Shown one piece after another: positions 2,616 to 41,882 of a DNA stretch of 64,000 bases. Within the stretch, counting starts at the first letter, position 1; the number at the start of each line of letters is the position of its first letter. A program made the translations under genes and the position numbers. Source of the DNA: Phormidesmis sp. (lineage in GTDB: Bacteria > Cyanobacteriota > Cyanobacteriia > Leptolyngbyales > Leptolyngbyaceae); assembly GCA_965248535.1 (NCBI GenBank), contig CBDFJR010000002.1, forward strand, positions 2,411,206 to 2,475,205. Direction: 5' to 3'. The notes below the pieces were generated by a model. That model searched no databases. It was given only the letters and a program-made list of their open reading frames with translations, and had not been told where the DNA came from.

Positions 2616-2619
2616 GGCG

Positions 2620-6719: not shown

Positions 6720-6757
6720 GCTTCTGATCGTGTCAGAGAAGTTTGTTTCCGTAAATA

Positions 6758-6808: not shown

Positions 6809-6835
6809 TTTATTTAACCTTCAGGATGAACTTCG

Positions 6836-7284: not shown

Positions 7285-7299
7285 CCTTTCTTCTCAGTC

Positions 7300-7551: not shown

Positions 7552-7639
7552 AAAAAGAAACGTTCCTACCGTGAGATAGAAACGTTGTCTAATTAACCCG
7601 ATTGAAGCAAGTTGAACAAAGGTTGTCCGATTCAGGTAA

Positions 7640-8134: not shown

Positions 8135-8231
8135 ATAAATTACACAAAAAACAGCTTGTACTTAGACGGTACTGCTCCTGTTATATCGTTGGGAAAGTTA
8201 AAACCCCTGTGATCAAGCTCACTGCACTTGT

Positions 8232-11500: not shown

Positions 11501-13873
11501 CAAGACGAAACCACAAAGACAACCTTTGATGAAAGTCATCGTTTAGGAGAATGGGTCGTCAACTACGATGATCTCTTAGAAAGGAGACAACTGGTTAATC
11601 AAGGCGTAAAGGTCATTCGCTACCAGCAGCATCGTACCGACGAACGCAATTTCTTAGTCTCTTCAGATGCGTCATTGAATGTTCTCAAAGTGCTAGTAAG
11701 GAAGCGACTCGGTGATCTCAATCTGGCACTGGAAAGTGATCGCATTGATAAACTTGTAGAGCGCTTGATTAACGATGCCAATGCAGTTTCTGGTGACATT
11801 GTGTTGCGAGCTGCGAAATGCGGCAGATTTGCGAGTGAACTGATGGGCGTTGTTCTTAGCAAGGCACTCATTACAGCAGAAATGGGAGCGCAAAATCCCA
11901 TCGGCTGGTACTTCCTGGATGACTATGCCTCCTGGCTCGGACAGAAAGAGGGGCAAATTGCTGACATGATGGCAATTTCACCGCAGTACATTGATGATGA
12001 GCCTGTTCTCAAAGTCATTGTTTCAGAAGCAAAATATGTTGATGTCGCTGGCTTAGCCGATGCCCGCAAGACTTCTCAGAATCAATTAAGGCAGACGGTC
12101 GATCGTATTGCCGATGCTCTGTTCATTAGTCCTGGTCGCCTCGATCGCGATCTTTGGCTTTCTCGTCTCAGCGATCTTCTCATTGATGGCATTGAGTTTA
12201 GCTCCAACAATAAAGTGAATATTGAGCAGTGGCGTGAACAGATTCGCTCAGGGACTCTTCGCATCGATTTATCTGGCTATTCACACGTTTTCGTCACGGG
12301 CACGAATGATAGCAATGCTGAAGGAGAACGATCGCCCATTCCCAAAGTGCAGCGATGTTTTCAAGAAGTCTTCGATCGTGAATCTGTTCGCAAGCTGGTT
12401 CTGGCTTACGAGTCGGGACAGTCGTTGTTTCCCACACGAGAGCAAATCGGCGATGACAAGCCGTGGACAGTGACTCAAGCCTTGCCACCTGCAGATCGAG
12501 TCACCTGGGTATTAGAGATTGAGAAAGTAGAAGCCGTAAATGCTACTCCCTTAGTAGCGGATGTTACTCCATTAGTAGGAAAGGAAGATAACCAGACAGA
12601 GAACCCTGACCAGCTAGTTCAGCTAACCCTTCCTGATGAGCCACTCCAACCTACACCCGCCGATTCTTCTATCGTTTCAAATGTTCAGGCTCTCCATAGT
12701 TGGGCAAGTCCGGCACTTGTTGCGTGGTGGCAGCAAGGACAAGCACAAAGCAATCAGAGTGATGCAGCAGCAGAAAAATGGCTAGAAGAAACTGCCGGAA
12801 AATTGCGGACGGCATTACTGGGATACAGCCTACAAGCCAAAATTGAAGGCAAGCGATTGACTCCCAATGCGGCGATCGTGCGATTCAAAGGTTCTGATCA
12901 TCTGAAGCTAGAGGACATTGAGAAGAAGCGATCGCAACTCTTAACCACTCATTCCCTAAACGTAATCAGCCTCTATGGTCAGCCAGGTGAAATTGTGGTT
13001 TCGGTTGCCCGTCCTCAGCGCCAAACCATCTCTCTACGTGAGGTGTGGGAGAAACGAAAAGTCAATCGCTCTTCTTCAGGAATTAACCTCAGTTTTGTCC
13101 TTGGAGTCAAAGAAATCGATGGCGAACTGCTCTACCTCAACCTAGATAGTAGCTTCGAGAATCTGGAGCAACACGCTCCTCACACCTTAATTGCTGGAGC
13201 AACGGGAAGCGGAAAATCAGTTCTGCTACAAAATCTCCTGCTCGATATTTGTGCAACCAACTCGCCTAAACTCGCCCAGATCTACCTCATTGATCCCAAG
13301 ATGGGTGTCGATTATGCCAATATTAGCGACCTTCCTCATCTCAAAGAAGGCATCATTATCGAGCAAGAACGCGCGATCGAGATTCTGGAATTTCTAGTCG
13401 AAGAAATGGACAATCGGTACCGTAAATTCCTTCCTCAGAAAGCAAAATCTTTGCAGGATTACAATTCCAAAATGCCTGAGCAGGATCGACTCCCGGTACT
13501 TTGGCTTGTTCACGATGAGTTTGCCGAGTGGATGCTGATCGATGAGTACAAAACGGCTGTATCTGCTGCTGTACAGAGATTAGGTGTGAAAGCGAGAGCC
13601 GCAGGAATTCATCTCATTTTTGCCGCACAGCGTCCTGATGCCAATGTGCTTCCAGTGCAGCTTAGAGATAATTTAGGCAATCGACTAATCCTAAGAGTCG
13701 AAAGTGTCGGCACTTCAGAAATCTCACTCGGACAAAAGGGTGCAGAGAACCTCTTGGGTAAAGGACATTTAGCGGCTCGTTTAACAAACCAATCCGATCT
13801 GATTTACGCTCAAGTTCCCTTCCTTGGGGATGAAGACATGGCTACAGTCGCAGAAATTATCAAACAGCAGTGA
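8543..13873 (+). CDS. Large FtsK/SpoIIIE-domain ATPase (SspH/DptH-like PT restriction component)
   Basis: 1776 aa. C-terminal PHTLIAGATGSGKS, LIDPK, LVHDEFAE, ARAAGIHLIFAAQRP, GAENLLGKGH. Internal IADMMAI...VSEAKY resembles a PD-(D/E)xK motif. Located in a PT locus. Confidence 0.8.
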   Translation: MKTIELIGQVAADFLKRSIQTDEASEGVARFLLNRLTAQQIAAVCKTILQDSELSPLIKIQIPRDLVESYNLPEEILTVESTVHLRHSACDRPALLLVNISDDQAQSLKDITSVGAQELRGQIDCWIDLAARDLAIPSEQIEYWRKALNGLQKVGTPSLENFAEFIVQTRSRILDQSLPVVDALGWALPALRLPRDSGYFRAIPETQWGQTQRWENLFQQAFTKRACLLLKQTPNRKPIDEQELQTAFDKVKDDIPAIAHPIIQSFIASSAGWNPHAENLAQFEWESENINTLFSGLQAQKTDIASLTLEFFNDEYPDVLTEEESQYINALKKKRSKREALDEDREFYDAHRPELEDNPKLKAKWDKFVYGQPLECTDFMIGLLQAFERLFNQAETVDGVKSLKIETQKKAGKSKWLELNADVGRYFCTRYRGIEQLTAAHIEWDTHWLFKYETLLEETQKKQKSKYRENTSAAKTATEIKFYIEMRDSAKTLIAKTQLVWRCNPNAIGMELSSDLARLLNKSPFQLSTVARELVSRKGRLQGISLSDVGTLMATYSKDRGSLIGKYENKDDLAKILPKQLKQAVAEGRLSKEGADAIADAWKAFTDRYRAAIAGFTSADGRGIANPELLHQCEAYKALLNTILTHVKGDLNRINLYQPVLRLGCIQVERGKPAAIVAPWHPLRLASLAIKVRQLAGLLQYIISTPEVNFGDSRLFFADLRNELDHPYYPEVCVGYQGQQPELLSVSDTLNDYSLMERPTRDESDRTTNENPAEAADRLLGIIRRYVELMPHEKANLSVVLYQTDSIKLPQAIVHKLSEELQDDREEVRCQVILRHRNGQKLTQLYEQMLESSDADPDAFIASEVSQDFMARLRISVMSHDVPTTNPREGKFADIVFLQDAISRQAKVVWQPSPFDSAAADLLIHSPARWSRKRPSATDELKSTVYLTCPKQPVVGQIYLDLVYSIIEGEDCSPEQHFLPARQISFQDETTKTTFDESHRLGEWVVNYDDLLERRQLVNQGVKVIRYQQHRTDERNFLVSSDASLNVLKVLVRKRLGDLNLALESDRIDKLVERLINDANAVSGDIVLRAAKCGRFASELMGVVLSKALITAEMGAQNPIGWYFLDDYASWLGQKEGQIADMMAISPQYIDDEPVLKVIVSEAKYVDVAGLADARKTSQNQLRQTVDRIADALFISPGRLDRDLWLSRLSDLLIDGIEFSSNNKVNIEQWREQIRSGTLRIDLSGYSHVFVTGTNDSNAEGERSPIPKVQRCFQEVFDRESVRKLVLAYESGQSLFPTREQIGDDKPWTVTQALPPADRVTWVLEIEKVEAVNATPLVADVTPLVGKEDNQTENPDQLVQLTLPDEPLQPTPADSSIVSNVQALHSWASPALVAWWQQGQAQSNQSDAAAEKWLEETAGKLRTALLGYSLQAKIEGKRLTPNAAIVRFKGSDHLKLEDIEKKRSQLLTTHSLNVISLYGQPGEIVVSVARPQRQTISLREVWEKRKVNRSSSGINLSFVLGVKEIDGELLYLNLDSSFENLEQHAPHTLIAGATGSGKSVLLQNLLLDICATNSPKLAQIYLIDPKMGVDYANISDLPHLKEGIIIEQERAIEILEFLVEEMDNRYRKFLPQKAKSLQDYNSKMPEQDRLPVLWLVHDEFAEWMLIDEYKTAVSAAVQRLGVKARAAGIHLIFAAQRPDANVLPVQLRDNLGNRLILRVESVGTSEISLGQKGAENLLGKGHLAARLTNQSDLIYAQVPFLGDEDMATVAEIIKQQ

Positions 13874-13880
13874 GTCAACC

Positions 13881-15074
13881 ATGCCCCACAGCAAGTTAGA
13901 GAATAATTCACCTCAAAAGCCCATCTATCTGGACTATCACGCGACTACGCCGACCGATCCGCGAGTTGCAAGTTTGATGCTGCACTACATGACTGAGGAA
14001 TTTGGCAATGCTAGCAGCACCGATCATGAATATGGCGATCGCGCTGAAGCTGCCATTAAACAAGCCGCCAAAAACGTTGCCGATTTAGTCGGAGCTTCAC
14101 CACGAGAAATCATCTGGACATCAGGCGCAACTGAAAGCATAAATCTTGCCATCCAAGGCAGTCTTTCTCCCAATCCGCAAAAGCCGCATCGAATCGCTCT
14201 GCCTCCGATCGAACATAAAGCCGTTCTCGACACCTGCCATGCTCTTGAAAAGCGCGGTTGGGCAGAGCTAATTTATTTGCGAGTCGATTCTAAAGGTAAG
14301 CTCGACCTCGACCATTTAGAGCAAGTTTGTGCTGAGGGAGTGTCTTTACTCTGCGTCATGGCTGCAAATAACGAGATTGGTAACATCTACCCAATTCAGG
14401 CGATCGGGCGAATTGCTCAACGTCACAATATTCCGTTTCTTTGCGATGCCTCCCAAGCCGTTGGTAAGATTCCAATTCAGTTTGAGGAGTGGGGCATTAC
14501 TTATCTCGCAATCTCTGGGCATAAGCTTTACGCTCCTAAAGGAGTTGGGGCGATCGTTGTGCGTAAAGGACATCATTTAGAGCCAATGATGTTTGGGGGC
14601 GGGCATCAGAAGGGAATGCGATCGGGGACGCTCAACGTTCCAGGAATTGTGGGATTGGGAGAGGCTTGTCGGCTGCGATCGCTAGAAATGGAAGCCGATG
14701 AACGTGCGATCGCGACCCAGCGTGACAGGCTCCAAGCTTTACTTCTAGAGAAGTTCTCCAATCTAGTCATCAATGGGGATGTAGAACACCGTTTAGCGGG
14801 CAATCTTCATCTTTCAATTCCTGGAATTCCTAACAGTGCCGTCATCGCTAGAATTCGTCACCAGTTGGCAATTTCAACGGGTTCGGCTTGTTCATCAGGC
14901 ATCGAGTCGCCTTCTCATGTGCTTCAAGCCTTACGCTTGCCAGAGGATATCGTCGAAGGCGCGTTCCGAATTGGACTCGGAAAATTTACGACGGATGATC
15001 AGGTTAACAAAGCATTTGAAGTTCTCTCTGATGCAATTACTCAGGTTCAGCAGGTTCTCTGTGCGATTTCTTAA
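13881..15074 (+). CDS. Cysteine desulfurase (IscS/DndA/SspA-like)
   Basis: IYLDYHATTP, TSGATES, NNEIG, SGHKLYAPKGVG (PLP lysine), RSGTLNVPG, STGSACSS (catalytic Cys). Start taken as ATG 13881. Confidence 0.93.
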   Translation: MPHSKLENNSPQKPIYLDYHATTPTDPRVASLMLHYMTEEFGNASSTDHEYGDRAEAAIKQAAKNVADLVGASPREIIWTSGATESINLAIQGSLSPNPQKPHRIALPPIEHKAVLDTCHALEKRGWAELIYLRVDSKGKLDLDHLEQVCAEGVSLLCVMAANNEIGNIYPIQAIGRIAQRHNIPFLCDASQAVGKIPIQFEEWGITYLAISGHKLYAPKGVGAIVVRKGHHLEPMMFGGGHQKGMRSGTLNVPGIVGLGEACRLRSLEMEADERAIATQRDRLQALLLEKFSNLVINGDVEHRLAGNLHLSIPGIPNSAVIARIRHQLAISTGSACSSGIESPSHVLQALRLPEDIVEGAFRIGLGKFTTDDQVNKAFEVLSDAITQVQQVLCAIS

Positions 15075-15157: not shown

Positions 15158-15604
15158 TCAAGGCGAAGATAAGATCTCGTCCAAAAGCATGAGAGGTAAA
15201 TTAGGAACGTTGCGGAAGGCACGATCGTTGCTCAGGAAAACTGTACAGTTCGCACTTAAAGCAGTAGCTGCATGAATGGCATCAGGCGTTTTCAGATTGG
15301 TGGTCGCTCGCAGATTAGCGGCATCCCGTAAAATAGAACGCTGAATCGGAATCAGTTGAATGTCTGAGTTTTCCAGTAGCTGTTCGTAGTCGTTCGCAAG
15401 GACTGTATTTGTCTGTCTCAGAGGGAAGACGAGCGTTTCCATGAGAGTTAATTCACTGGTTACGATCTCAAGTTCGCTTGCCTGAAATTTTGCCCAGAGA
15501 GGTTGAAGCAGGTCAAAATAGGTTGGATTCGCTTCGACGGTGTAAATAATGATCTGAGTGTCGATATAAATACTGGCAGCAGTAGGTAGTGCTAGCGGTC
15601 CCAT
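15158..15604 (-). CDS. vapC: PIN-domain VapC-type toxin
   Basis: IYIDTQIIIY...TSELTLMETLV...LKTPDAIHAATAL...FLSNDRAF. Confidence 0.9.
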   Translation of the reverse strand: MGPLALPTAASIYIDTQIIIYTVEANPTYFDLLQPLWAKFQASELEIVTSELTLMETLVFPLRQTNTVLANDYEQLLENSDIQLIPIQRSILRDAANLRATTNLKTPDAIHAATALSANCTVFLSNDRAFRNVPNLPLMLLDEILSSP

Positions 15605-15867: not shown

Positions 15868-18800
15868 TTAATCCTCGATCGCGCCTAATGCTTTGAGAGT
15901 TGCTATTTCTGATTCTGTTAAGCCTTTTACTTCAGTAATATTCATACCTTCGTAAGGACGGTTAGCGAATGTTTTCAAGCATTTTCCAGTCTTCACATCC
16001 CAGAAGCGGACATCTGAACCACCGCTTATGATTTGCTGACCATCAGGACTGAAAGATACTGAAAAAGCGTGATGAGTGCTACCACAAATATCTTGAAGAA
16101 ATTCCCCCGTCCTAGCGTTCCATAATTTGATAATTCCGTCACTACTACCACTAGCTAATAATTGCCCGTCAGGGCTAAAGCAAACAGATTCTATCCACCC
16201 AGAATGACCATAGAGTGCCTTGACCAACTCACCTGTAACAGGATTCCATAGCCTGACGCTTAGGTCATCACCTCCACTAGCTATTATTTCTCCATCAGGG
16301 CTAAAAGAAACAGATTGAACCCAATCTGTATGCCCCTCCAGAGTCTGTAGACATTGCCCAGCAAGATTCCAGATTTTGATTGTCCGATCGGCGCTACTAC
16401 TCAATATCAACTGACCATTAGGACTAAAACACACTGATAAAACCTTGTCAGTGTGCCCTTCTAGGATACTTAAACATTGCTGGCTTTGGAAGTCCCATAC
16501 TCTGAGTGTGTCATCACTACTAGAACTCACGATGAGTGCATCGTCAGGACTAAATGCAAGGCTGTGAATTCGACTAGAATGTCCTCCTAAAGTACCAAGA
16601 TAATGACCACTATGCACATCCCATAATTTAATTACTCTGTCTCCTCCTGCACTAGCAATCACATTAGAATTGTTATTGAATTCGGCACAGCCAATCCAAC
16701 TTGTATGCCCTTTCAACGTATACAAGACTTTTTGAGTAGCGCGTTCCAGAATTTGTACTTCTCCATCATTAGAGCCAATGGCAAGAAAGTGCCCATCAGG
16801 ACTACTCGTGACTCTTATCAAAGACATGAATCCTCGAATGGTCTGAGAGCTAATGCCATGTTCAACATCCCAGACTTTGATAGACTGATCTCGACCTCCA
16901 CTAACGAGTGTGGAGCCATCTGAATTAAACACGACTGAGTAAACATAATCTGTATGCTCATTCAAAGTTTTCAGGCATTGTCCATCTAGAGACCAGAGTT
17001 TGATGGTCTTGTCTTGACTGCAACTAGCTAATGTTGTGCCATCTTGACTGAATGTTACTTTATTGACACGCCCCAAATGCCCGCTAATTGTCATCAAATG
17101 AGAGCCAGTTTCGGAGTTCCATAGCTTGACTGTTTTATCACGCCCACAACTTGCAAGAATCTGTTCTTTGGGACTAAACTCTACACCCAAAACCTTATCA
17201 GTATGCCCTTCAAGAGAAAATAGCAATCTACCAGTCTCAACGTCCCAGAGTTTGATAGTTTGATCGTCACTACAACTAGCTAACTTTTTACCATCTTGGC
17301 TAAAAGAGACTTCACGAACTCTACTACGCCCACTCAACACAAAAACACAGGTTTTGTGTTGGATATCCCATAATCGAACAGTGCCGTCACTTCCGCCGCT
17401 TGCAAGAAATCTACCATTAGGATGAAATTTAACACTATGGACTCTGCCACTGTGTTCTTCAAAAGAGCAGGCACACTCACCCGTTTGAACATCCCAAAGT
17501 TTAACTGTTGCGTCATGGCTGGCAGTTGCTAGAAATTGATTTGAAGGAGAAAAAGCAACTGAAGCAACAAGATTAAAATGAGAGAAATTGATGATTTCTT
17601 TTGATGTTCGGAGATGAAAAATACGAACCATGCCGCTGTATCCACCTGCCGCTAAGAGGTTATCATCTGAACTCAACGCAACAGAAGTTGTCCTTCCTAC
17701 TAAATTAGCTAGCTTTGACTCTGCTAAATTAGCTCCTGAAAAATTTGTCTGATGTAAGATGGCAAGTGAAAGGTCAGCGCCTTGAATATTAATTTGCTGC
17801 AAATCTCGGCATTTCAGCGCATTCTTATCCAACTGCATTATCACAGTAACTGCATTTCCTCCAGTGAATCTAGTTTTTTCGGGACTTTCGTTTCTTGTGC
17901 AGTAAATGAGTTCTATCAAACTGTCAGTAGTTGCGGAAGAAAGCATTGGTACTAACAAATCTACAATTGCTTTGGATAAAGGTACTTTCCCAAAACTTAA
18001 ACCCAAAATCTCCAAATTTTCTTGCCCCAGCTTTTTCAGTTGTCCAATGCAATTGCTTTGTTGTGCAAAGCATTCTGACCAAGTAGATTGTTGTGATAGA
18101 GTGCTGTAATCCAAGTTGAAATCTGTTTGTATCAATTCAAGAAAATCAGGCGCTAGTAAACCAAGCTCCGCTGCAAATTTATAGGCAACAAAAAACTCTA
18201 ACAGCGATCGATGTGCCGGACTATAATCACCGTCAGCATTCCGAATCAGCATCGTTTGCCCCATCATGTCGTAGTGCCAATGGTCAAGGTCTTTCTCTTC
18301 TTGCACCGCAGATCCAAACAAGCGACGAATGCGATCGGGGAACTCGCGATAGTTCAAACTCATGCGATCGCTCGACAACATCTCCCACGACAACTCGCAC
18401 AGAAAATACAGCTTATCGGCTAACGAGGTAAACGTGCGCTCTGCCTTGATATCCCGCTCCATCTTGCGTCGAACCGCATAGAGATACACCCGCGACATAT
18501 CTATAGGCTTTCCCGCCTCAATCTCTGGCAACGCTTCCAAAATCAACTCTGTCATCACCGGACGACGAGCGAGATCGAGTAATTGTGGATTGCTAATCAC
18601 TTGGTCCACTGTTGGCATCGATGCTTGAAATGACATCACCTGCCGAATTTGCTCATCGTTAAACTTTTCTAGCTCCAAGACTTCAAACTGTGGAGTTTCT
18701 CCGGTTAAGTTCGAGGTGGAGGCTTGCAGTTGAGCATTTAATAACGCTCGTCCTTCTCGCGCATCGGGAAAATGCTCCGTCCGACAGGTCAAGATCACCT

Positions 18801-20298
18801 TGGCTCCGGGAACGACGACTTTCGCCAATTCCCAGAAGTTGTTAATCATCTGCTGCTTATCGACTTTCGCCGCCATTTCATCAAAGCCATCGAAAATCAG
18901 CAACAGCTTGCCCATGCGGTTCAGTTGGTCAAAGACCTCGCTGTTAAGCCGAATATTATGCTGCGTAAAAAAGAAGCCTGCCAAAACATTCTCGACGTTC
19001 AGAGCTTTGGCATAATCGCGTAAGGTAATGACAAGCGGCAATCGTGGGCGCTGTACTCCGCGCTCTTTCGCTTCCTGGTAGCGTTGTAGAGCCGTCCAAG
19101 CGTAGTGGAACGCGACCCAAGTTTTTCCTGTGCCGAATTCGCCCAGGACTGAAATATGTTCTTTCGCGGGATCATCAAGCCAGCGATCGAGATAGCCATC
19201 AATTCAACCGTCGCGCTCATCGTATCGACTTACGCCTAACCGTTGTTGGGTATCCGGATCAATTTCTTCCTTCGTGCAGCCCAACGGAACATAGCGCGTG
19301 TCAATCTTGCGATGTTTAATTTCAGTCTCTAACCATTTGATATAGCCTGTGAAATCTGCGTCTAAATCAACTAACTCATCAAAGGTGTAGCAGTCGAGAT
19401 GTCGATTTTCGGGCTTTTCCACTTCATCACGGGCAGCACGACTAATCCGACGGGAAGTGACAAGCCAACCTTCATCGGTTTGCTGCGCCTCGACTGATTG
19501 CCGCAATGCCATCACATCCCGTAATTCTGCTTCGCCTTCAATGCCTCGGACTAAGATGCGATCGTATCTCCCCCGTCTGACCGGAATATTGAGAATCCAC
19601 TCAAACCCGTCCGCTTGCCACTGCTCATACGGCTCAAAGCGGTAGCCCAACGTTTCAAACCAACCGCGCATCTGTTGAGCGAGAGCAAACGCACGGCACT
19701 GCTCAGAAACTGAAGCCTCTGGCAAAGCGGGCAGCGATTGAGCCGCGAGTCTTGCCATCTCAGTGCGAATGCCTTCGATCGTGGGTAACCGTTCCAACCG
19801 ATCTTGCACCTGGGCAACTTGGCGATGAAGCGAGTTCAGTTGTTGAGTCGTCAAGATATCCCCCGGAGTGCGCGTGCGTTTCGCGATCGCGATAAACACC
19901 GCTGCAAACTGATAAAACTCTTGTCGCGCCTCGATTCCCAGCGCTCGAAGTTCATCGCCTAATGTGGCATTTTCAAGAAAGCTTTCTCCCGCTTTTGAGA
20001 GTACCGAGAAATTATCCTGCCCCCAGGCATCCTGAAACGCTTGACGAATTTCGGGCTGACGAAAGAGTTCCAACACGGCTTTGGGCTTTCCCACGCCATA
20101 CTCCACCAAGGTGTAGGCATAAACACCACCAAAATCCGCAGGGGGGCTATCAGGACTGAGGTTGAACTGTTTTAACAGCCGAATGATCGCTTCATTGCGC
20201 TCTAATTTGTCTCTCAGCAACGCAGTGGGATTGGCGATGCCAGTAATTGCTTGAATCAGGACGGTGAAATCGATCGGAATCACGGGGGCAGCCTCCAA
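15868..20298 (-). pseudogene. Helical N-term + restriction-endonuclease-like + NACHT NTPase + pentapeptide + WD40 protein, interrupted by in-frame TGA at 19204-19206
   Basis: The 364-aa and 1057-aa ORFs share a frame: ...YDERDG*IDGYLDRWLDDPAKEHISVLGEFGTGKTW...RPRLPLVITLRDY. Walker A lies in the gap between the two ORFs; Walker B LLIFDGFDEM; many GH...WD repeats. Joined length 1476 codons plus stop. Confidence 0.88.
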
Positions 20299-20443
20299 AC
20301 GGACGATTTCAAGCTAACTGTTTTGATGACGAGTTGCCAAGATCAAAACTATGAAATTTGATACCCGTACCACCTCTTTATGTCCACAACCCGTTCACCT
20401 ATTGAGAATTTATTGCCAGCGCTGATGAACTCAAGAAACCGGG

Positions 20444-20650
20444 TCAGACTTTGAACATCAGAATTGGGCACAGTCGATCGAAAACTTCCACCAATCCCGC
20501 TTGCACTTGGGTATCAATCACAGGTGTAGTTGGTTTGTAGGCAGGGGCTTTCTCAATCCGTCGTTCCTCTCGCAAGGTGATGCAAGCGATTCCTTCTAAT
20601 CCCAACGATTCTTCAGTTTCATTCGCACTCGCACGAGTCAGATCAAGGCA
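20444..20650 (-). pseudogene. 3' fragment of an RtcB-family RNA ligase gene
   Basis: Manual translation CLDLTRASANETEESLGLEGIACITLREERRIEKAPAYKPTTPVIDTQVQAGLVEVFDRLCPILMFKV* resembles the RtcB C-terminus (EEAPxAYK...LVEVVARLxPxxxFK). No upstream body. Confidence 0.55.
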
Positions 20651-20858
20651 AACAGTTCATCCAGTGGCGACTATAGATTTGATTTCCTATTCCATTCACG
20701 CTCTCCTCAGATTATTCAGCATGAATTCAGCAATAAAATAGGGTCAACACAAATATTTAAGCTATTTTTCAGCACAGGTTCAGAAAAATCTTTTACGATC
20801 GACATATTAATCTAGGCGCAACATCGTGAAGTGCCTCTAAAAGACTGAGGAGTTTCTG

Positions 20859-21125
20859 ATGATGAATATGTTTGTCGGTAAGCAGCAAGCCTGTCAGTTT
20901 CTCGATTTGAGCAATGACACTCTGAAGAAGTATCGACTTCAAGGCGAGTGGATTGAAGGCATTCATTGGGTGCGGATTAATCAGCGGTGTGTCCGCTACA
21001 ATCTGCCACTGATTCAAGACTGGATGCACAATCGCTGTAATCCTGCCGCGCATCGACGCGCGATTGTAACTTACGAAGCCACTCTTTTAAGCCATCAAAA
21101 GAAAGCCAAAAAAATTGCCCAATGA
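20859..21125 (+). CDS. Excisionase-like HTH DNA-binding protein
   Basis: KQQACQFLDLSNDTLKKYR...WIEGIHW...VRYNLPLIQDW; convergent with the integrase. Confidence 0.7.
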   Translation: MMNMFVGKQQACQFLDLSNDTLKKYRLQGEWIEGIHWVRINQRCVRYNLPLIQDWMHNRCNPAAHRRAIVTYEATLLSHQKKAKKIAQ

Positions 21126-21161
21126 GCTATTGAGCAATTAGCTTTATCAACCAGACAACAT

Positions 21162-22350
21162 TCAAGTCAGATCCGGTGGTCGAAGATTTGTGAAATTCGT
21201 TGCGCCGTAGTGCTTGTCGATCATCTTGGCACTCGTTCCCGTCCAACGTCCGATCGCGGTGCTGTTAATATGAGCCTCCACACATAGGCTGATGAAAGTG
21301 TGTCGGCATTGGTAGCTCTTTCGATAGGGAATGCCGCTCTTCGACATAATCGCCTGCCACGGGCGATTAGCAAAATTGTGCTGGTCAATAAATCTGTCTC
21401 TCGGACTTCTGAAAATGAAGGCTTCAGGATCAATCGTTTCAGCCTTCATACCGTCCAAAATTGTCTTGACTTCGGGGGTAATCGGAAAGTCGCGTTTATG
21501 CTGAGTCTTCAAGCCTTCTTTCAGAATCAGCCCTTTCTTAGACACCACCACCGCTTGCCGGAATCGGATCACGCTTTCGGTGACGTGTTTCCATTGCAGC
21601 CCAATCACTTCTGATGGACGTGCGCCTGTAAAGAACAAAAAGCGCACGTAATTGGTGTAGTGCTTGTATTGGTGATCCATTTCAAAGGTTTGAATAATCC
21701 GATCGCGCTCCTCTTTTGAAAATGGACTGACATCCTCATCTTCAGTCAACCCTTTAGGAGCTTTAAGCTTCATTGAGCTAAAAGGATTAATCTCGATGAT
21801 GCCGTCTTCAACTGCCCAATCACAGCACGCTTTCAGTTGAGTCACACACCGCTTCGCTGCATCCGGTGTCAAATTTGCTAAGAGATAATCTCGAATGGCG
21901 ATTGCATCATTCAAAGACTGACTTGGAAACCGACGAATGTGATTTTGCTGCTTTGTGTAGTCCTTGCAAAATGTACTGGGACTTACCTGCGGCTGTTTGA
22001 ATTCCATATAGCGCTCCCACAAGTCAGCGAGGGTTGGCTGCAATTTGGCTGGAGGATTGGGGGAAATTGGGGGAATGGAGGAAACGGTGGTCAGAGCCGC
22101 GTAGGGCTGATACTTGGCAAGGCTCAGATCCACCTCTCCGTAATCAATATCCCGTTGAAGCGTTCTTACCGTATCCCCAACTCGTTGCCGATTGATCGGT
22201 GTATCCTCGTGCCCAGTAGAAATATAGAACCGCTTCCGTTTGATCTCCCCGTTTTCTTGAATTGGGTAAGAAAAGACGATTTGCAACCGACCTCGCGTAT
22301 TTTTGAACTGAACCCTTGTTACCCTTGCCTTGTGATGATGACGAATACAT
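21162..22350 (-). pseudogene. Tyrosine recombinase/integrase with N-terminal arm-binding domain; apparent frameshift near 22300
   Basis: Catalytic motifs FFTGARPSE, LKTQ, YQCRHTF, IDKHY. The AGGAG-preceded ATG at 22350 (MYSSSSQGKGNKGSVQ) is out of frame with KNTRGRLQIVFSYP; the main frame has only a TTG at 22286. Confidence 0.75.
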
Positions 22351-22424
22351 CGGCAACTCCTGTTAGGGGAATCAGAGGAATATGCTGTTCAGTCTAACTT
22401 TGCTCTATTTTTCTTTTTACAACA

Positions 22425-22468
22425 ATTCCCCCAATTTTCCCCCAATTTTGCCTCTAAACCCCTCTAAA
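22425..22468. repeat. Direct repeats between integrase and tRNA (candidate arm-type binding sites)
   Basis: CCCCCAATTTT x2 followed by CCTCTAAA x2; an inverted copy of the first pair lies at 22056-22076 inside the integrase. Confidence 0.5.
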
Positions 22469-22514
22469 AATGCCTAACGTGAAGACACACCTTTGAGATG
22501 AGAGCGCCAAAAAC

Positions 22515-22546
22515 AAAGCCCACAGGCTAGTTGCAGTGGGCTTTTT
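22515..22546. terminator. Hairpin downstream of tRNA-Phe
   Basis: AAAGCCCAC...GTGGGCTTT stem with A/T-rich flanks. Confidence 0.6.
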
Positions 22547-22562
22547 GCTTGAGATATCTGAA

Positions 22563-22635
<73 letters not shown>

Positions 22636-22898
22636 AGATTTAATTACGTTTAGCGCTTAACTAAGGTAGCAAAAACAAATGCAATTTGCAAGTAGTTTTG
22701 GAAAATAGGATTGTGGAGTAATTCCACTCTAAAGTCGCATCTCAAAGTCTTCTCCTAACTTTCTCAACGTAGCCAGAGCAAACAAACTTCAACCCTTTCT
22801 CCTAAATTTGATCTGCCAACCGGGTGCTGATCGGTCAAAATGGGTGTGTGCTCATTAATGGGTCACAAATCTTTAGAGCTACTCTATCTAAAACGCTT

Positions 22899-23861: not shown

Positions 23862-24002
23862 TCAGCAGATTCAGGCACTTTGTTCTGCTGAATTTTAGGG
23901 TGAGGATGTACGAAATCACGTCATTCTTGCCCTATTTTATTTGAATTTTTATTGGCACCACGATCGCTCCAGCTAATCGGAGAACTGACTTGAAATATCT
24001 CA

Positions 24003-24091
24003 GCCAGATTGGCTACATAAACGGCAAGGAATCCCCCAGTCATTTGTGAGGGAAGATATCTTATACATAACAGCTTAAACAGAGTTGTTAA
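24003..24091 (+). promoter_or_regulatory. Conserved upstream module, copy 1
   Basis: GCCAGATTGGCTACATAAACGGCAA, then 44 nt from TTGG to AAGATATCTTATACATAACAGCTT. Confidence 0.75.
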
Positions 24092-24130: not shown

Positions 24131-24349
24131 ATGATTATCTCAGAACTTAGCTATCTCGAAGTTGCTACTGAAGCCAATGAGCTAGAAGGTGGGCTTGATT
24201 TATCGGTGACTTCTACTCACTTTGCACAACAATTAGCCGTGTTGCAATCTGGTTCATCGTCGGGCCCTGGAGGCAGCATTTCTTTTGCAAATGCACAGCA
24301 TTTAATCACTGACACGAGTAGTTTTAGCGCGATCGTGTTGGGCGCTTAA
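24131..24349 (+). CDS. Double-glycine-leader peptide 1 (CTB-family bacteriocin-like / EbfG-like)
   Basis: AAAGGAG RBS; MIISELSYLEVATEANELEGG leader; Ser/Gly/Ala-rich core with SGPGGS; paralogues adjacent. Confidence 0.85.
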   Translation: MIISELSYLEVATEANELEGGLDLSVTSTHFAQQLAVLQSGSSSGPGGSISFANAQHLITDTSSFSAIVLGA

Positions 24350-24453
24350 TCAATCAGTTCATTTTCTTTCTGATATCTCATCTATCAAACAGGGCATATT
24401 TGGCGCGTTTATTTATCATAGACGCGCTTTTCTTTAAGGCATAAGATATCGCC

Positions 24454-24530
24454 GCCATATTGGCTACATAAACTGCAATAGAGGCCATATAAACGGGTAA
24501 GTAAGATACGTTATAAAAAGCAGCTTGAAT
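24454..24530 (+). promoter_or_regulatory. Conserved upstream module, copy 2
   Basis: GCCATATTGGCTACATAAACTGCAA, then 43 nt from TTGG to AAGATACGTTATAAAAAGCAGCTT. Confidence 0.7.
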
Positions 24531-24575
24531 AAGCTTCTATCAATCTGACCGGATTAAATTAGAAAGGAGAGAATA

Positions 24576-24794
24576 ATGCTGATTACTGACCTAAATTATT
24601 TAGAAAGCGTTGACGAAGCCACAATCTTAGAAGGTGGAACTGACTGGGCGGCAACCTTAACTGCCTTTAGTCAAGCGCTTTCGATGCTGCAAACCGGAGC
24701 TACTTCAGGGCCTAATGGTAGTTCGGCGTTTGCGAATATTGGTCGCTTGAATATGGCGACACTCGGTTTAGGTGCCGTTTTTCTGGGAGTCTAA
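24576..24794 (+). CDS. Double-glycine-leader peptide 2
   Basis: AAAGGAG RBS; MLITDLNYLESVDEATILEGG leader; core with SGPNGS; 72 aa like its paralogues. Confidence 0.85.
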   Translation: MLITDLNYLESVDEATILEGGTDWAATLTAFSQALSMLQTGATSGPNGSSAFANIGRLNMATLGLGAVFLGV

Positions 24795-24916
24795 ATTAGA
24801 GGTCGATCGCTATCTTACAAAGTTACAAGCAACTGGCGCATTTATTCATTTAGGTGCGCCAGACTTGTGTTTTTTATTAGGGATTATTGTTCCGATCTCC
24901 ACTCTAAAATAACCCT

Positions 24917-25005
24917 GCCAGATTGGCTACACAAACTGCAAAAGAGCACCTATTCCTAAATCTAAGAAGATATCTTATACATAACAGCTTAAACAGAGTT
25001 GTTAA
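24917..25005 (+). promoter_or_regulatory. Conserved upstream module, copy 3
   Basis: GCCAGATTGGCTACACAAACTGCAA; 24966-25005 is identical over 40 nt to 24052-24091. Confidence 0.75.
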
Positions 25006-25037
25006 CAACTAAACCACTCATTTCAAAGGAGACTACT

Positions 25038-25256
25038 ATGATTATCTCAGAACTCAACTATCTAGAAATCGCGACCGAAGCAGCTAGCCTAGAAGGTGGC
25101 ATTGACCTGTCTGTAAACTTCACTCAGTTCAAACAACAAACTTCAGTGCTGCAAACTGCATCAACGTCTGGGCCAGGGGGCAGCACTTCTGTTGCCAATG
25201 GCGGCAGCTTGAAGATTGACACCTCTGGTTTTGGGGCGATTGTCTTGGGTGTCTAA
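25038..25256 (+). CDS. Double-glycine-leader peptide 3
   Basis: AAAGGAG RBS, ATG 25038; MIISELNYLEIATEAASLEGG leader; SGPGGS core; 72 aa. Confidence 0.85.
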   Translation: MIISELNYLEIATEAASLEGGIDLSVNFTQFKQQTSVLQTASTSGPGGSTSVANGGSLKIDTSGFGAIVLGV

Positions 25257-25301
25257 CGAGACAAACTCCCAAACAAATCGGGCAAGTTAGATGCTTATCA
25301 A

Positions 25302-25350
25302 TTCCTCTAGTCAAGAGCTTTTTCTTAACCTCACGCTTTGACTAGAGGAA
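25302..25350. terminator. Strong stem-loop after peptide 3
   Basis: TTCCTCTAGTCAA (25302-25314) pairs perfectly with TTGACTAGAGGAA (25338-25350). Confidence 0.6.
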
Positions 25351-25447
25351 AATCAAATTCGAGCTTATAAAGCTAATGCTGATTCTATTAGGGACATGGC
25401 ACTGCTATGCCCCTAGCAATCATTTTTTCGTTTATGAGGGCATACAA

Positions 25448-25756
25448 ATGATTATTTCTGATCTTGATTGTGTTGAAGAAATTGATGCACTATTGGAGAT
25501 AGAAGGTGGTGGAGTCTGGAGCGTCGGCTCTGAAGATGGCTATACAAGAGGAAGCAACCGTTCATGGTTCTCAATGATTCAACCCATTTTGCAATCTCTC
25601 AACATTTTTCCGGCGGCCTCTTCTACGGTGGCAAATTTGGGCGGAACCTCGATCGGGAACACCGCAATCTCAACCAATATATCGATGCCAATCTTTATTG
25701 TGATTAATCAATTTGGCTCAGGGAGAGGTGGAAATCGCAACTACTTCTCATTTTGA
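25448..25756 (+). CDS. Divergent double-glycine-leader peptide 4 (102 aa)
   Basis: GAGGG RBS, ATG 25448; MIISDLDCVEEIDALLEIEGG leader; different, longer core. Confidence 0.7.
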   Translation: MIISDLDCVEEIDALLEIEGGGVWSVGSEDGYTRGSNRSWFSMIQPILQSLNIFPAASSTVANLGGTSIGNTAISTNISMPIFIVINQFGSGRGGNRNYFSF

Positions 25757-25798
25757 TAACTAAAAATAGTCGCCTCACTCAAGTCAAGGATAAACCCG

Positions 25799-26530
25799 AT
25801 GACTATCTTTAAAGGAGAAGTAATTCAACCAGAGACTATCACGTTTGCATTAAGAAAAGAGATGCAGATTAAAGAAGTCTGCCGTAAGGTTTTTCATCAA
25901 AAGATTATCGATCAAGCCGTAGAATCACGCGGCATTTGCTTGATCCCTGATGAGATTCAAGCTGAAGCAGATCGAATGCGCTATGAAAACCGATTATTTC
26001 GATCGAGCGACACGCTAGCCTGGCTGTCTGATCAGTTAGTCACCGCCGATGATTGGGAGGCAGGCATTCGCGATCGCTTGATTGCTAAAAAGTTATCTCA
26101 AATTTTGTTTGCCAAGGAAGTCGAACGGTTTTTTGCTGAAAATCAGCTAGAGTTTGACCAGGTTTTACTCTATCGATTTGCCGTTCCTTATGAACAGTTT
26201 GCTCAAGAGATCTCCTATCAGATTCAGGAAGACGAAATCAGTTTTTACGAGGCGGCTCATCTCTATGATATTGACTGTCAGCGTCGATATCACTGTGGGT
26301 ATGAAGGTAAGCTTTATCGCCGCAGCCTCAAGCCAGATTTGTCGGCGATCGTGTTTAGCGCCACGCCGGGTCAGGTGATTGGCCCTCTGACCATGGATCA
26401 AGCAAGTCACTTGCTGATGGTTGAAGAATTTATTCCGGCTGAGTTAACGCCAGAGCGTCATCAAGAAATTCTCAACCGAATGTTTAGCGAATGGTTGACC
26501 TCAGAATTGAATTATTTATTAAATGTATAA
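25799..26530 (+). CDS. PpiC/parvulin-type peptidyl-prolyl isomerase-like foldase of peptide-secretion clusters
   Basis: IQAEADRMRYENRL, AQEISYQIQEDEISFYEAAHLY, VFSATPGQVIGP, EEFIPAELT; adjacent to GG peptides. Confidence 0.8.
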   Translation: MTIFKGEVIQPETITFALRKEMQIKEVCRKVFHQKIIDQAVESRGICLIPDEIQAEADRMRYENRLFRSSDTLAWLSDQLVTADDWEAGIRDRLIAKKLSQILFAKEVERFFAENQLEFDQVLLYRFAVPYEQFAQEISYQIQEDEISFYEAAHLYDIDCQRRYHCGYEGKLYRRSLKPDLSAIVFSATPGQVIGPLTMDQASHLLMVEEFIPAELTPERHQEILNRMFSEWLTSELNYLLNV

Positions 26531-31189: not shown

Positions 31190-31260
31190 GCGATCGGGGT
31201 CTTAAAAGGCTGGCGGTGGGACGACAATCTAGCTGCCAGTCTATCTTTGGAAGAACGATC

Positions 31261-31917
31261 ATGAATCAAATCGCCTCAACAGTTCCCACGATCGAGACAG
31301 ACACCTGGGTAAAAGCTAGCTGGGAAACCTTGTCTGCTTTGGCGGATGATCCGGCTTATGAAAATGGGCGACTTTATTACGATCGTGGAAACTTAAGAAT
31401 CGAAATGGCAGCCCTCGGATCAGCACATGGTCAAGACAATACCGTGCTTTCTAACGTCGTCGCTATCTTTGCAGCCCTTAAGAATCTTCGGACTAAAGGA
31501 TTGACCAATGCAAGTTTTTGGAAAACGGGAGTCAGAGGGTGTCAGCCTGATCTCGCGTTTTATATTGGAACAGAATTTGGACAACTCCCCCGCAACAATT
31601 CTCCTGTAAATGTCGATGAGTTTGGCGCGCCAAGTTTGGTGATTGAGATTGGAGCCTCCTCCTTTCAAGATGACTTGGGAAATAAGCGCCTACTGTATGA
31701 GCAGCTTGGGATTCAAGAATATTGGGTTGTAAACGTTGAGACGAGCGAAGTGTTTGCCTTTAAGGTCAATCAGGGATCGAGCGGTCGAATTCACGAATCG
31801 CTGGTCTTGCCCAGATTGAAGATTTCCCTCGTCGAAGAAGCATTACAGCGCAGTCAGGTAGAGGATGATGGCACAATTAACCGTTGGTTACTGCAAACCT
31901 TCACAGATCTTTCTTAA
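31261..31917 (+). CDS. Uma2 family endonuclease
   Basis: [34 protein letters not shown]. Start taken at ATG 31261. Confidence 0.9.
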
Positions 31918-35754: not shown

Positions 35755-36435
35755 ATGCTGAAACGTTCCTCAGTCTCAGTGCCACGGTTAGAGAATGGCG
35801 ATCGACTGTCTCGCGTCGAATTTGAGCGTCGCTATGCAGAGACTCCTGAAAAATTTAAGGCAGAACTCATTGAAGGAACTGTTTACGTGGCATCTCCAGT
35901 TCGAGTCAAAAATCACGGTAGACCTCACGCCTACGTCATGGGCTGGCTGGCTTTTTATGTTTCAGCAACGCCAAGAGTCGATATTGCAGACAACTCAACC
36001 GTCAGATTAGATCTCGACAACGAACCTCAGCCCGATGCCTTGCTGCGAATTGAGCCAGAGTTTGGCGGCAAGTCTCGCATCACCGAAGACGATTACATTG
36101 AGGGTTCTCCAGAACTCGTAATCGAAATCGCGGCAAGTAGTGCTTCTGTGGATATGAACGCCAAACTCAACGCTTATCGCCGCAACGGAGTGCAAGAGTA
36201 TCTGGTTTGGCAAGTTTACGAAAATCAAATCGCCTGGTTTTGCCTACAAGATGGTGAGTATATCCGTTTACAACCCGATGCGATAGGAATGATTAGGAGT
36301 CGAGTTTTCCCAGGACTTTGGTTAGCCGTGGACGCACTTTTGAGGGGAGAGTTAGCAACGGTTCTCACAGAGTTGCAAACCGGATTAGCAACACCAGAAC
36401 ATGGGGAATTTGTCGATCGACTCAGCAAAAAATAG
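35755..36435 (+). CDS. Uma2 family endonuclease
   Basis: LENGDRLSRVEFERRY, EPQPDALL, PELVIEIA, YRRNGVQEYLVW. Confidence 0.92.
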   Translation: MLKRSSVSVPRLENGDRLSRVEFERRYAETPEKFKAELIEGTVYVASPVRVKNHGRPHAYVMGWLAFYVSATPRVDIADNSTVRLDLDNEPQPDALLRIEPEFGGKSRITEDDYIEGSPELVIEIAASSASVDMNAKLNAYRRNGVQEYLVWQVYENQIAWFCLQDGEYIRLQPDAIGMIRSRVFPGLWLAVDALLRGELATVLTELQTGLATPEHGEFVDRLSKK

Positions 36436-41072: not shown

Positions 41073-41882
41073 TCAGGATCTTGATTTCCGTTTAAGTAGT
41101 GTTTTGGCGCTCAAAGTCGCGATCGCCACTAAACTGATGGCTGACGTTGATTCTGGAACCGATTTGATCGGCACGGCGCTGCTGCCGTTGGCGCGCAATA
41201 GCCAATAGCCCGCTGTATAGACATCGCTATCGGTTAACTTAGGAGGCTGGGGAAGCGGATTGATCCCGCGGGTGGAGTCGCTAAACACGAGCCAAGACTT
41301 GCCGCCTCTAGCAACTTTGTCAGTCGGGTTAGGAATGTCAAGCGCCGCCGGAAATTGTCCTTCTTTTTGGTTGGGAAACAGAGCGGCTATGTAGAACGTT
41401 CCCTCGACTGGCTGACGCTGCTTAAACACGATTCTAGAAAAAACATCAGAGCGGTCAGGCCGCGTCGTATCGGGGGGCTGAACGATCGTGTCTTCTTCGG
41501 CTAAAAGCTCTAACTGCTGGTCATTATTCGTGTCGGCGTATAGAAAAACTTTTGCGGGTTCGTTAGAGAGTCCGGCGGTGAGTAAGGGAGTTTGAGTGCA
41601 GGGATCGGTGACTCGCGCACCCCAAACGATGTCGATCGAGTCAATAAACTCGCCCCCGGCTCTAGCGTTAAAAGAATTGAGCCACATCAAATCGCCCAAA
41701 ACGCGGGGAGGAGTGGGTTGAGCAGGTGGCTGAGAAGCCCGATTGCAGGTGGTCAGCCCTACGGCTGCGTTGCTCTCTCCATCGTCAAGCTGATAGACCG
41801 TGGCGGCCCTCGCCGCAGACGGCAGAGAGAGGGTGGCGATCGCGCTCAGGGTGACAAGTCTAGTAGTGAATTGCTGAAACAT
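41073..41882 (-). CDS. Secreted PEP-CTERM-like sorting-domain protein
   Basis: Signal peptide (ARA); C-terminal VPESTS + hydrophobic stretch + KRKSRS. Confidence 0.75.
   Translation of the reverse strand: MFQQFTTRLVTLSAIATLSLPSAARAATVYQLDDGESNAAVGLTTCNRASQPPAQPTPPRVLGDLMWLNSFNARAGGEFIDSIDIVWGARVTDPCTQTPLLTAGLSNEPAKVFLYADTNNDQQLELLAEEDTIVQPPDTTRPDRSDVFSRIVFKQRQPVEGTFYIAALFPNQKEGQFPAALDIPNPTDKVARGGKSWLVFSDSTRGINPLPQPPKLTDSDVYTAGYWLLRANGSSAVPIKSVPESTSAISLVAIATLSAKTLLKRKSRS

Follow-up and report, generated by a model that had tools for sequence, protein, structure and literature searches.

A double-glycine peptide cassette of Phormidesmis as the probable cargo and chaperone half of a split exporter cluster

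We analysed a 64,000-nucleotide stretch of the Phormidesmis sp. genome (GenBank assembly GCA_965248535.1, contig CBDFJR010000002.1, here C2, positions 2,411,206 to 2,475,205; ‘the window’), which contains a five-gene cassette encoding four small peptides with double-glycine (GG) leaders and a PpiC-like protein. Our reading, held at a probability of about 0.72, is that the cassette represents the cargo and chaperone half of a split secretion cluster, of the type that combines a long peptidase-containing ATP-binding cassette (ABC) transporter (PCAT), an HlyD-type adaptor, a HetP-family protein and a rotamase termed ‘SurA’, and that it is served by an exporter encoded on another contig (C5) of the same genome. 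That figure covers the system-level reading (the identity of the cassette and of its serving exporter), with the role of the peptides outside the cell weighed separately below. The cassette is of a known kind, its peptide family having been named and its cluster type catalogued in 2011. What is added here is modest: the split of the cluster together with an identified exporter, a set of three peptide subtypes (A, B and C), a cis element unique within the genome, a SurA/PrsA-like fold in a protein predicted to be cytoplasmic, and a leader common to the cargo and to HetP-like proteins. Coordinates are collected in Table 1.

The open reading frame (ORF) list and its translations bear out the four GG-leader peptides and the PpiC-type gene at 24131–26530 that the original prediction had described, and the gene set is not a chance assortment, since 64 homologues of the peptides were found and the same set recurs in other genomes. 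The four peptide genes are packed into 1.6 kb, and other genomes of the order carry two to four tandem copies. The G+C content is 0.417 between 24001 and 26000, versus 0.476 and 0.525 on the flanks. Peptide 1 has a strong AAGGAG ribosome-binding site. The ORF of peptide 3 (24999–25256) contains an in-frame ATG at 25038 that gives a form of 72 amino acids (aa), in the same Shine-Dalgarno/AAGGAG context as peptide 1, and that of peptide 4 (25376–25756) contains an ATG at 25448 that gives a product of 102 aa. The three 72-aa products are 47–67 % identical to one another; compared with peptide 1, the identities of peptides 2, 3 and 4 are 47 %, 67 % and 30 %. The 51-aa cores of peptides 1–3 contain no Cys, have a central SGP(G/N)GS motif and end in (V/F)LG(A/V).

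A double-glycine leader was taken to be about 15–30 aa long, to end in GG (or GA/GS), and to be hydrophobic at position −4 and acidic at −8. All four window leaders are 21 aa in length, start with M(I/L)I(S/T)(E/D)L and end in GG (positions 20–21), which is preceded by LE in peptides 1–3 and by IE in peptide 4; position −4 is L or I in them, and position −8 is E or A.

Peptides 1 and 3 exceed the curated cut-off (32 bits) of the NCBIfam model NF038167, ‘CTB family bacteriocin’ (scores in Table 1), a named family that the original prediction had recognised no more than it had the 2011 cluster catalogue. The alignment with this model covers only the core (residues 19–70 and 20–69 of peptides 1 and 3). 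Peptide 2 does not reach the cut-off, and neither NCBIfam nor Pfam yields a match for peptide 4; a Pfam scan of the peptides gave matches at chance level only (E 0.07–0.08). CTB stands for ‘cyanobacterial tandem bacteriocin’ (Pfam PF28158) in a protein atlas and in precomputed labels, and type B orthologues carry the PF28158 label in the precomputed set. The window peptides share with this family their tandem genes (a family trait as read from its name), their GG leaders and their cyanobacterial origin, and their cores resemble those of a second CTB array on C5 of the same genome, but they differ in the leader, which is of the form MIISDLxYLE rather than the classical LSxxELxxVxGG of the C5 array.

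The homologues returned by the profile search (64 in number) fall, when read side by side, into three subtypes. Type A (LDLS...SGPGGS...GFGAIVLG) includes window peptides 1 and 3, and type B (TDWAATLTAF...SGPNGS) includes peptide 2. Type C, to which peptide 4 belongs, comprises proteins of 90–113 aa with a near-invariant GGTSIGNTAISTNISMPIFIVIN block and an aromatic C-terminus. The family is tiny, as a search of 1.84 billion proteins yielded just 14 representatives at E <= 0.001. Peptide 4 had been described as joining the common leader to an unrelated core. The leader is indeed shared, but the core belongs to a conserved third subtype, whose profile matches that of types A and B with an hhalign probability of 96.5 % over 56 columns, extending from the leader to a ...P..S..VAN.GG stretch, with the leader providing much of the score. 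The best protein-atlas score for peptide 4 (0.89, to a cluster labelled ‘cyanobacterial tandem bacteriocin domain-containing protein’) is below the counting level and serves as a lead only.

Peptides 1–3 are each preceded, about 90–140 nt ahead of the start codon, by a conserved element of about 49 nt that consists of a palindrome (GCCA-N3-TGGC) followed by TACAYAAAC-N-GCAA. The core motif occurs three times in the 5.03-Mb genome, in each case ahead of one of these peptides. The element is also present upstream of homologous peptide genes in Phormidesmis priestleyi ULC007 (locus L014; three copies), Leptolyngbya sp. AN10 (L016; two copies) and a Phormidesmis metagenome-assembled genome (MAG; L034; one copy). 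Between the window cassette and the Leptolyngbya AN10 locus, only the peptide genes, the upstream elements and the PpiC-like gene are conserved; this comparison revealed no further shared ORF, and therefore no candidate immunity gene, in the cassette.

The 243-aa product of the fifth gene passes the Pfam Rotamase model PF00639 (32.8 bits, against a cut-off of 21.7), in support of its assignment as PpiC-type. An AlphaFold2 (AF2) model computed with 46 sequences (predicted local distance difference test, pLDDT, 92.2) presents it as a helical N/C chaperone module into which a single parvulin domain is inserted. The best Foldseek match of that model is a Bacillus subtilis YrvJ-YacD complex model (9a7d), followed, at E 3e-10 to 1e-7, by PrsA (4wo7, 6vj4, 5htf), SurA (1m5y, 2pv3, 9hga_F), 3rfw (titled PEB4/Cj1289) and HP0175. 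The modelled architecture is thus that of the SurA/PrsA/PEB4 chaperones, but sequence identity to them is only 12–18 %, and a sequence search of the PDB gave weak parvulin matches only (E 0.04). Those chaperones are located in the envelope, whereas the window protein has no signal peptide or lipobox. Residues 1–45 are polar, and the model gives them two short strands and helices; because neither sequence nor model has a hydrophobic N-terminal segment, the protein is predicted to be cytoplasmic. While SurA and PrsA serve general envelope folding, its gene neighbourhood suggests that the PpiC-like protein is dedicated to a type I secretion (PCAT) cluster. The model TIGR04500 (putative peptide maturation system protein) gave 50.0 bits against a cut-off of 180, as for a distant relative only. 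In a quick tree, the PpiC-like genes that adjoin A/B/C peptides form a clade of five rows (Shimodaira-Hasegawa-like approximate likelihood ratio test, SH-aLRT, 97), which includes the unsplit Leptolyngbya cluster.

Relatives of the PpiC-like protein were found at 77 loci across cyanobacteria. ORFs of at least 90 aa in these loci were clustered and representatives annotated, and four partners recurred: a long ABC exporter of about 1000–1100 aa with cNMP-binding, C39 and ABC domains; an HlyD-type adaptor; a HetP-family protein (NF037966, 119.9 bits); and, in many loci, RTX-repeat proteins. The genes stand on one strand in the order PCAT, HlyD, HetP, cargo (if present) and PpiC-like in 29 loci, and a further 20 contain part of the PCAT/HlyD/HetP set (long-PCAT synteny, 29–49 of 77). 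The fetched flanks of the other 28 contain none of the three; in 15 of these the sequence ahead of the gene is shorter than 7 kb, and in one (L090) the PpiC-like gene itself is no more than a fragment.

A pattern search for MIISDLxYLE...GG peptides returned 95 in 40 of 78 loci (window included), nearly all of which share a strand with the PpiC-like gene and stand upstream of it. Of the 95 leaders, 61 have a length of 21 aa, 81 end in GG and 14 end in AG; V, I or L occupies −4 in 83 and E occupies −8 in 55. Classical leaders place hydrophobic residues at −7, −12 and −15, in the pattern LSxxELxxIxGG. That spacing is absent from the MIISDL-type leaders, in which −7 is mostly E, A, S or T, −12 is mostly E, and conserved Leu residues stand at −13 and −16, so that MIISDLxYLE...GG reads, from its sequence, as a variant leader type. 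Excerpts of the cluster catalogue of Wang, Fewer and Sivonen (2011; PMC3140520) quote the LSxxELxxIxGG-type classical spacing in part. Cleavage after GG by the C39 domain, followed by export, would be expected for these peptides. Their cores, hypervariable between lineages, are alike in composition (Ser 14.8 %, Ala 12.9 %, Thr 9.2 %, Gly 8.7 %, Asn 7.0 %); 86 of the 95 are free of Cys. The peptide order is A, A, B, A, C in ULC007 and B, A, C in the Phormidesmis MAG, and in Leptolyngbya AN10 the peptides A, B, A, C and the PpiC-like gene follow directly behind PCAT-HlyD-HetP.

Elsewhere, arrays of up to 10 MIISDL-leader peptides have divergent low-complexity cores (L026, L032, L044, L048, L070 and others), among them cores with Tyr-rich GYYGYY tails (Oscillatoria) and with DxYxD repeats (Xenococcaceae). 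An AFAEADA...G motif recurs in the MIISDL cores of about 18 loci.

In the available portions of the same catalogue (PMC3140520), groups I and II are described as comprising a long PCAT with a CAP_ED extension, HlyD and a rotamase ‘SurA’, and HetP-like proteins (motif KIxDLxYLEx10GG) as skewed to group II. Every part named there (long PCAT, HlyD, ‘SurA’, HetP-like protein and GG precursor array) is found in the present genome, but here the precursors and the SurA-like gene lie on C2 and the PCAT-HlyD-HetP genes on C5, while the same parts are contiguous in the orthologous Leptolyngbya AN10 cluster. No M16 peptidase or other group II ‘modification’ gene adjoins either half.

The original prediction had pointed to the lack of any transporter or modifying enzyme nearby and had placed export in trans, and both statements have held up. 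Among the 43 larger ORFs of the 64-kb window, a Pfam search turned up neither a peptide-modifying enzyme nor a C39 peptidase, PCAT or HlyD; the sole ABC protein among them is a MalK-type ATPase (51677–52942), and none of the four PF03412 matches in the genome falls within the window. The genome contains three C39-type ABC systems (Table 1). The PCAT of the first, on C5 and unlinked to the window, is of the long type (marked by an N-terminal extension of about 300 aa), with a C39 domain at residues 340–467 (139 bits) followed by ABC membrane and ABC ATPase domains; a cNMP_binding match at residues 79–153 scores 23.6 bits, under the cut-off of 27.5. The PCAT, HlyD and HetP-like proteins of this system are 72.8 %, 66.6 % and 62.9 % identical to those of the complete Leptolyngbya AN10 cluster, whereas the other two C39-type ABC proteins reach only 32–39 %. 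Because this first system alone is orthologous to the exporter that is linked to A/B/A/C peptides in Leptolyngbya, an exporter acting in trans can be named, and we propose it with fair confidence as the cognate exporter of the window peptides. In a pattern search of the whole genome, those four peptides were the only ORFs that start with a MIISDL-type leader.

The same separation is found in relatives. The PCAT orthologue of ULC007 (87 % identity) is on another contig than the cassette, and that of the Phormidesmis MAG is about 200 kb away and reads as two frames (882 and 202 aa). The cassette itself lies between a VKOR gene and an M23 peptidase gene on C2, and the order in ULC007 is VKOR, peptides, PpiC-like, M23 and TPR, with a 5-kb insert between the PpiC-like and M23 genes that encodes unrelated proteins (DUF7453, PPTase, O-methyltransferase and acyltransferase). 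The split arrangement is thus common to members of the genus.

The second CTB array, on C5, has classical LSxxELxxVxGG leaders, NF038167 scores of 22.5 to 43 bits, and a layout that resembles group V in the accessible text of Wang 2011, and CTB-type cores thus stand behind two different leader types in one genome. The distant PpiC-like paralogue on C2 (252 aa, 26 % identity) gives 71 bits with TIGR04500, and the 855-aa exporter beside it is possibly a group I-type system for non-GG (RTX-like) cargo. A further C39 peptidase match (C5:121592-121975, 48 bits), in a 350-aa frame without an ABC part, could be a stand-alone peptidase resembling EbfE.

Structure prediction offers a view of the cores. 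For peptide 3, modelled with 27 sequences, the best AF2 prediction contains strands at residues 24–43 and 50–69 that flank the SGPGGS turn, with a pLDDT of 74.3 overall and 81–86 over the core, in agreement with the beta-hairpin that had been suggested from the sequence. Pro46 in the turn is near-invariant (26 of 27 rows of the A/B alignment). A two-stranded hairpin whose strands are each 20 residues long cannot stand alone, and if the model is right the cores would therefore be oligomers, in the form of a fibre, sheet or pore. The amphipathicity of the strands is too weak to argue for or against a membrane beta-barrel, and hydrophobic periodicity likewise favours no particular form of oligomer.

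We propose the following scheme. Peptides 1–3 would each be governed by their own upstream element, with terminators after peptides 1 and 2, and the resulting precursors of three subtypes (A, B, A, C) would share the 21-aa MIISDLxYLE...GG leader. The cytoplasmic SurA/PrsA-like protein would keep these aggregation-prone, unmodified precursors competent for export, and the 1050-aa cNMP-C39-ABC exporter and its HlyD partner would cleave the precursors behind GG and carry cores of 51 and 81 aa out of the cell. There, the Cys-free cores, rich in Ser, Thr, Gly, Ala and Asn, would most likely self-assemble as long beta-hairpins.

Several points weigh against this account. Expression, cleavage and secretion are predictions from the genes; no RNA run is listed for the stretch, which is contained in two DNA-type runs of one study. 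The exporter was assigned by orthology and leader type, and the second PCAT system (group V type) adjoins four other CTB-type peptides, such that cross-use is possible. Binding of the precursors by the chaperone is suggested by gene neighbourhood. A single AF2 model of the five shows the hairpin, the other four having pLDDT values of 50–52, and the earlier beta-hairpin proposal is supported in part; the lag-2 autocorrelation of the strands (−0.07 and 0.19) indicates weak amphipathicity. The A/B peptides are patchily distributed, being found in 16 of 90 genomes and 6 of 27 genera of the order and in four of eight genomes of the genus (the present one included), and they are 66–80 % identical to their ULC007 counterparts, versus 92–93 % for VKOR and the PpiC-like protein (tblastx). 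A distribution so patchy, coupled with such fast divergence, is no less compatible with competition factors than with matrix proteins.

For the function of the exported cores, a surface or matrix role like that of the EbfG proteins seems to us a reasonable though tentative proposal, made by analogy. The original prediction had preferred subunits of a secreted fibre or matrix to bacteriocins, a preference that the present observations leave unsupported. In the parts of the reports available, EbfG1-4 of Synechococcus elongatus PCC 7942 are matrix or cell-surface proteins, of which EbfG1-3 form amyloid fibrils (PMC9981879, PMC12267927) and EbfG4 has been located both in the matrix and on the cell surface (PMC4997328, PMC9981879, PMC12267927); the gene order there is precursors, PteB and HlyD, with a separate peptidase, EbfE (PMC12267927). 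As in the window, these are four small GG-motif proteins encoded in a row, and they are secreted by a C39 ABC exporter. They differ in that their cluster order is of the short-PCAT type (a length class we infer) and in that no SurA-like or HetP-like partner is mentioned in the available portion of PMC12267927. The CTB model NF038167, by which alone a relation to EbfG was judged, found nothing at E <= 1 in the S. elongatus genome that served as control.

A structural, self-assembling role fits the composition of the cores, the predicted hairpin and the three co-conserved subtypes. It also fits the strong ribosome-binding sites, the promoter-like elements of peptides 1–3 and the terminators of peptides 1 and 2, as well as the combination of a missing immunity gene with a dedicated predicted holdase. 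A more specific version, which we consider unlikely as a whole, is that A, B and C are co-assembling beta-hairpins of an amyloid-like matrix, supported by a cytoplasmic holdase, and that the exporter also cuts the HetP-like protein at an internal leader and so couples secretion load to HetP-type regulation. If true, ‘CTB bacteriocins’ would join EbfG as another, unrelated class of matrix proteins, widespread in cyanobacteria, and the HetP family would gain a role outside heterocyst formation.

These questions reach beyond one genome, in that hundreds of cyanobacterial GG-leader arrays are annotated as bacteriocins while the only tested ones, EbfG, are biofilm matrix proteins; in the literature as partly accessible to us, this is the only tested function that we found for unmodified cyanobacterial GG peptides. 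As a finding in itself the cassette is ordinary, with its family named and its cluster type catalogued, but it is a small, clean case of the commonest and least studied type (long PCAT, HlyD, HetP and SurA-like). It combines three subtypes with a dedicated chaperone and one identifiable exporter, has a unique cis element before three of the four peptides and lacks a modifying enzyme, and so lends itself to experiments on the function of the peptides and on the role of a cytoplasmic SurA-like protein in type I secretion.

The peptides might instead be true bacteriocins, acting as an unmodified multi-peptide (A+B+C) antimicrobial that kills related cyanobacteria, an explanation that we regard as doubtful. 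It is favoured by the family name itself, by the GG leaders and PCAT/HlyD exporter, by the patchy distribution and varying copy number (five in ULC007, four here and three in the MAG), and by the divergence of the peptides, which is faster than that of the flanking genes. Co-conserved peptide subtypes recall two-peptide bacteriocins. In the portion available of a study of Nodularia, CTB-annotated genes are induced under phosphate starvation and discussed as allelopathic (PMC9846622), which also speaks for such an activity. However, our literature search found no activity or other tested function for any CTB peptide, and no text match for ‘tandem bacteriocin’ or PF28158; the family name is an annotation and not the outcome of a test. 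The comparison with Leptolyngbya AN10 gave no conserved ORF of immunity type in the cassette, none is evident beside the C5 exporter, and the cores are near-neutral, of low complexity and predicted to be beta-structured.

The original prediction had the PpiC-like protein act on the conserved Pro, and in its strict form this would mean that isomerisation of the Pro in SGP(G/N)GS is a required maturation step of fibre subunits. The near-invariance of Pro46, its placement in the hairpin turn of the best AF2 model and the match to the Rotamase model are in line with this idea, which nevertheless appears improbable. Orthologous PpiC-like genes stand beside 24 cores (of 95) that have no Pro, and beside RTX-repeat proteins in other loci. 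In nine gaps between HetP and PpiC-like genes (in Calothrix, Tolypothrix, Nostoc and related, mostly heterocystous lineages), eight contain no MIISDL-type peptide, and at the ninth (L025) such a peptide lies far upstream of the PCAT gene. Because the orthologues accompany Pro-free cargo, RTX-repeat proteins or no peptide, a Pro-specific action on SGPGGS is unlikely, and this part of the original prediction is not upheld. Moreover, a weak alignment with HP0175 (E 0.04) puts Gln121, a residue conserved in the family, in the place of the first active-site His and CGYEG in that of GGDLG, while the second His (H204) is kept. The chaperone action of SurA and PrsA is independent of isomerase activity, and the predicted fold includes their N/C chaperone module; a role as holdase for unfolded type I secretion cargo would fit better.

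It is similarly improbable that the peptides are intercellular signals or regulators tied to HetP/HetC-type developmental circuitry. The exporter is a HetC-like long PCAT with the weak cNMP-binding match given above, and it is encoded with a HetP-family gene. Of the HetP-family proteins adjoining such exporters, 26 of 43 contain an internal I.DL.YLE-x10-GG leader motif followed by a tail of 12–48 aa, so that secretion and HetP processing could be coupled. Against a signalling role, cores of 51 and 81 aa in three to four similar copies with strong ribosome-binding sites look like bulk products, there is no linked receptor gene, and the close relatives are Phormidesmis and Leptolyngbya by name. 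To our knowledge, neither of these forms heterocysts. Independently of this question, HetP-family proteins with the internal motif may be substrates or competitors of the C39 domain.

Least probable of all is an orphan cassette, exported by the group V PCAT on C5 or decaying as an unsecreted remnant: its physical separation from every exporter, the two-frame PCAT of the MAG and the CTB-type cores with classical leaders that the group V cluster appears to export would allow it, but the five genes are intact with conserved upstream elements, no fewer than two further Phormidesmis genomes show the same split, both this genome and ULC007 retain intact copies of the matching PCAT, HlyD and HetP genes, the group V cargo has another type of leader, and detachment seems common and tolerated, because about 12 other loci with at least 7 kb of upstream flank also have no linked exporter genes.

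Table 1. Features of the cassette, of the exporter systems and of the rest of the window. Positions are those of the window unless a contig is named.
Feature	Position	Strand	Remarks
Conserved upstream element 1	23991..24039	+	Direct-repeat family D3 (3 copies); about 115 nt ahead of peptide 1
CTB peptide 1 (type A), 72 aa	24131..24349	+	21-aa leader ending LEGG, 51-aa core; NF038167 33.5 bits
Terminator-like hairpin after peptide 1	24402..24428	+	11-pair stem, then T run
Conserved upstream element 2	24442..24490	+	Direct-repeat family D3; ahead of peptide 2
CTB peptide 2 (type B, TDWAATLTAF...SGPNGS), 72 aa	24576..24794	+	ORF; NF038167 25.6 bits
Terminator-like hairpin after peptide 2	24833..24862	+	12-pair stem, then T run
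Conserved upstream element 3	24905..24953	+	Direct-repeat family D3; ahead of peptide 3
CTB peptide 3 (type A), 72 aa	25038..25256	+	ORF; NF038167 37.5 bits
Peptide 4 (type C), 102 aa	25448..25756	+	Shared leader; core with near-invariant GGTSIGNTAISTNISMPIFIVIN block, aromatic C-terminus
SurA/PrsA-like parvulin chaperone, 243 aa, without signal peptide	25799..26530	+	PF00639, AF2, Foldseek
Exporter system 1	C5 near 2.20 Mb		1050-aa PCAT, 520-aa HlyD, 131-aa HetP-family gene product
HetP-family gene of exporter system 1	C5:2206816-2207211		104.9 bits; internal cargo-leader motif
Exporter system 2	C5:2288362-2297674		764-aa PCAT, 974-aa ABC protein without peptidase, HlyD, double-cNMP protein; four CTB peptides
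Exporter system 3	C2:396229-399604		855-aa ABC protein, degenerate C39-like domain (36.5 bits), distant PpiC-like paralogue
SspB	1707-2615		387 bits (PADLOC)
SspC	2620-5277		1133 bits (PADLOC)
HNH protein between SspC and SspH	5274-6776	opposite to Ssp genes	
SspH	8543-13873		2402 bits (PADLOC)
SspA/DndA-like cysteine desulfurase	13824-15074		467 bits (PADLOC)
PIN protein	15158-15604		
1057-aa WD40 protein	15868-19041	minus	
NACHT-N-terminal/inactive restriction endonuclease protein	19204-20298	minus	
Tyrosine integrase	21162-22286	minus	
tRNA-Phe	22562-22636	minus	
SngB	42359-43690		574 bits (PADLOC); also matches BREX model BrxD/BrxHI set
SngC	43865-46057		824 bits (PADLOC); also matches BREX model BrxD/BrxHI set

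The rest of the window contains several unrelated features. A putative integrated island lies to the left of tRNA-Phe (15868–22636) and appears to comprise the NACHT-N-terminal, WD40 and PIN protein genes and the tyrosine integrase beside the tRNA. We considered whether the peptide cassette belongs to it and rejected this, as the integrase is on the far side of the tRNA, with VKOR between, and as VKOR, cassette and M23 gene are syntenic in ULC007; the cassette is outside the island. PADLOC identifies an Ssp-type DNA phosphorothioation defence system at 1707–15074. SngB and SngC, on the other side of the cassette, are components of a PADLOC defence system and both also match the BREX models BrxD and BrxHI; a 269-aa ORF upstream of SngB on the other strand (41073–41882) gave no match. 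Genes of the Uma2 family (putative restriction endonuclease fold) are found in the window at 31216–31917, 35755–36435 and 51032–51697, and another is present elsewhere in the genome, at 10694–11392 of the stretch L094 on C2 that contains exporter system 3.

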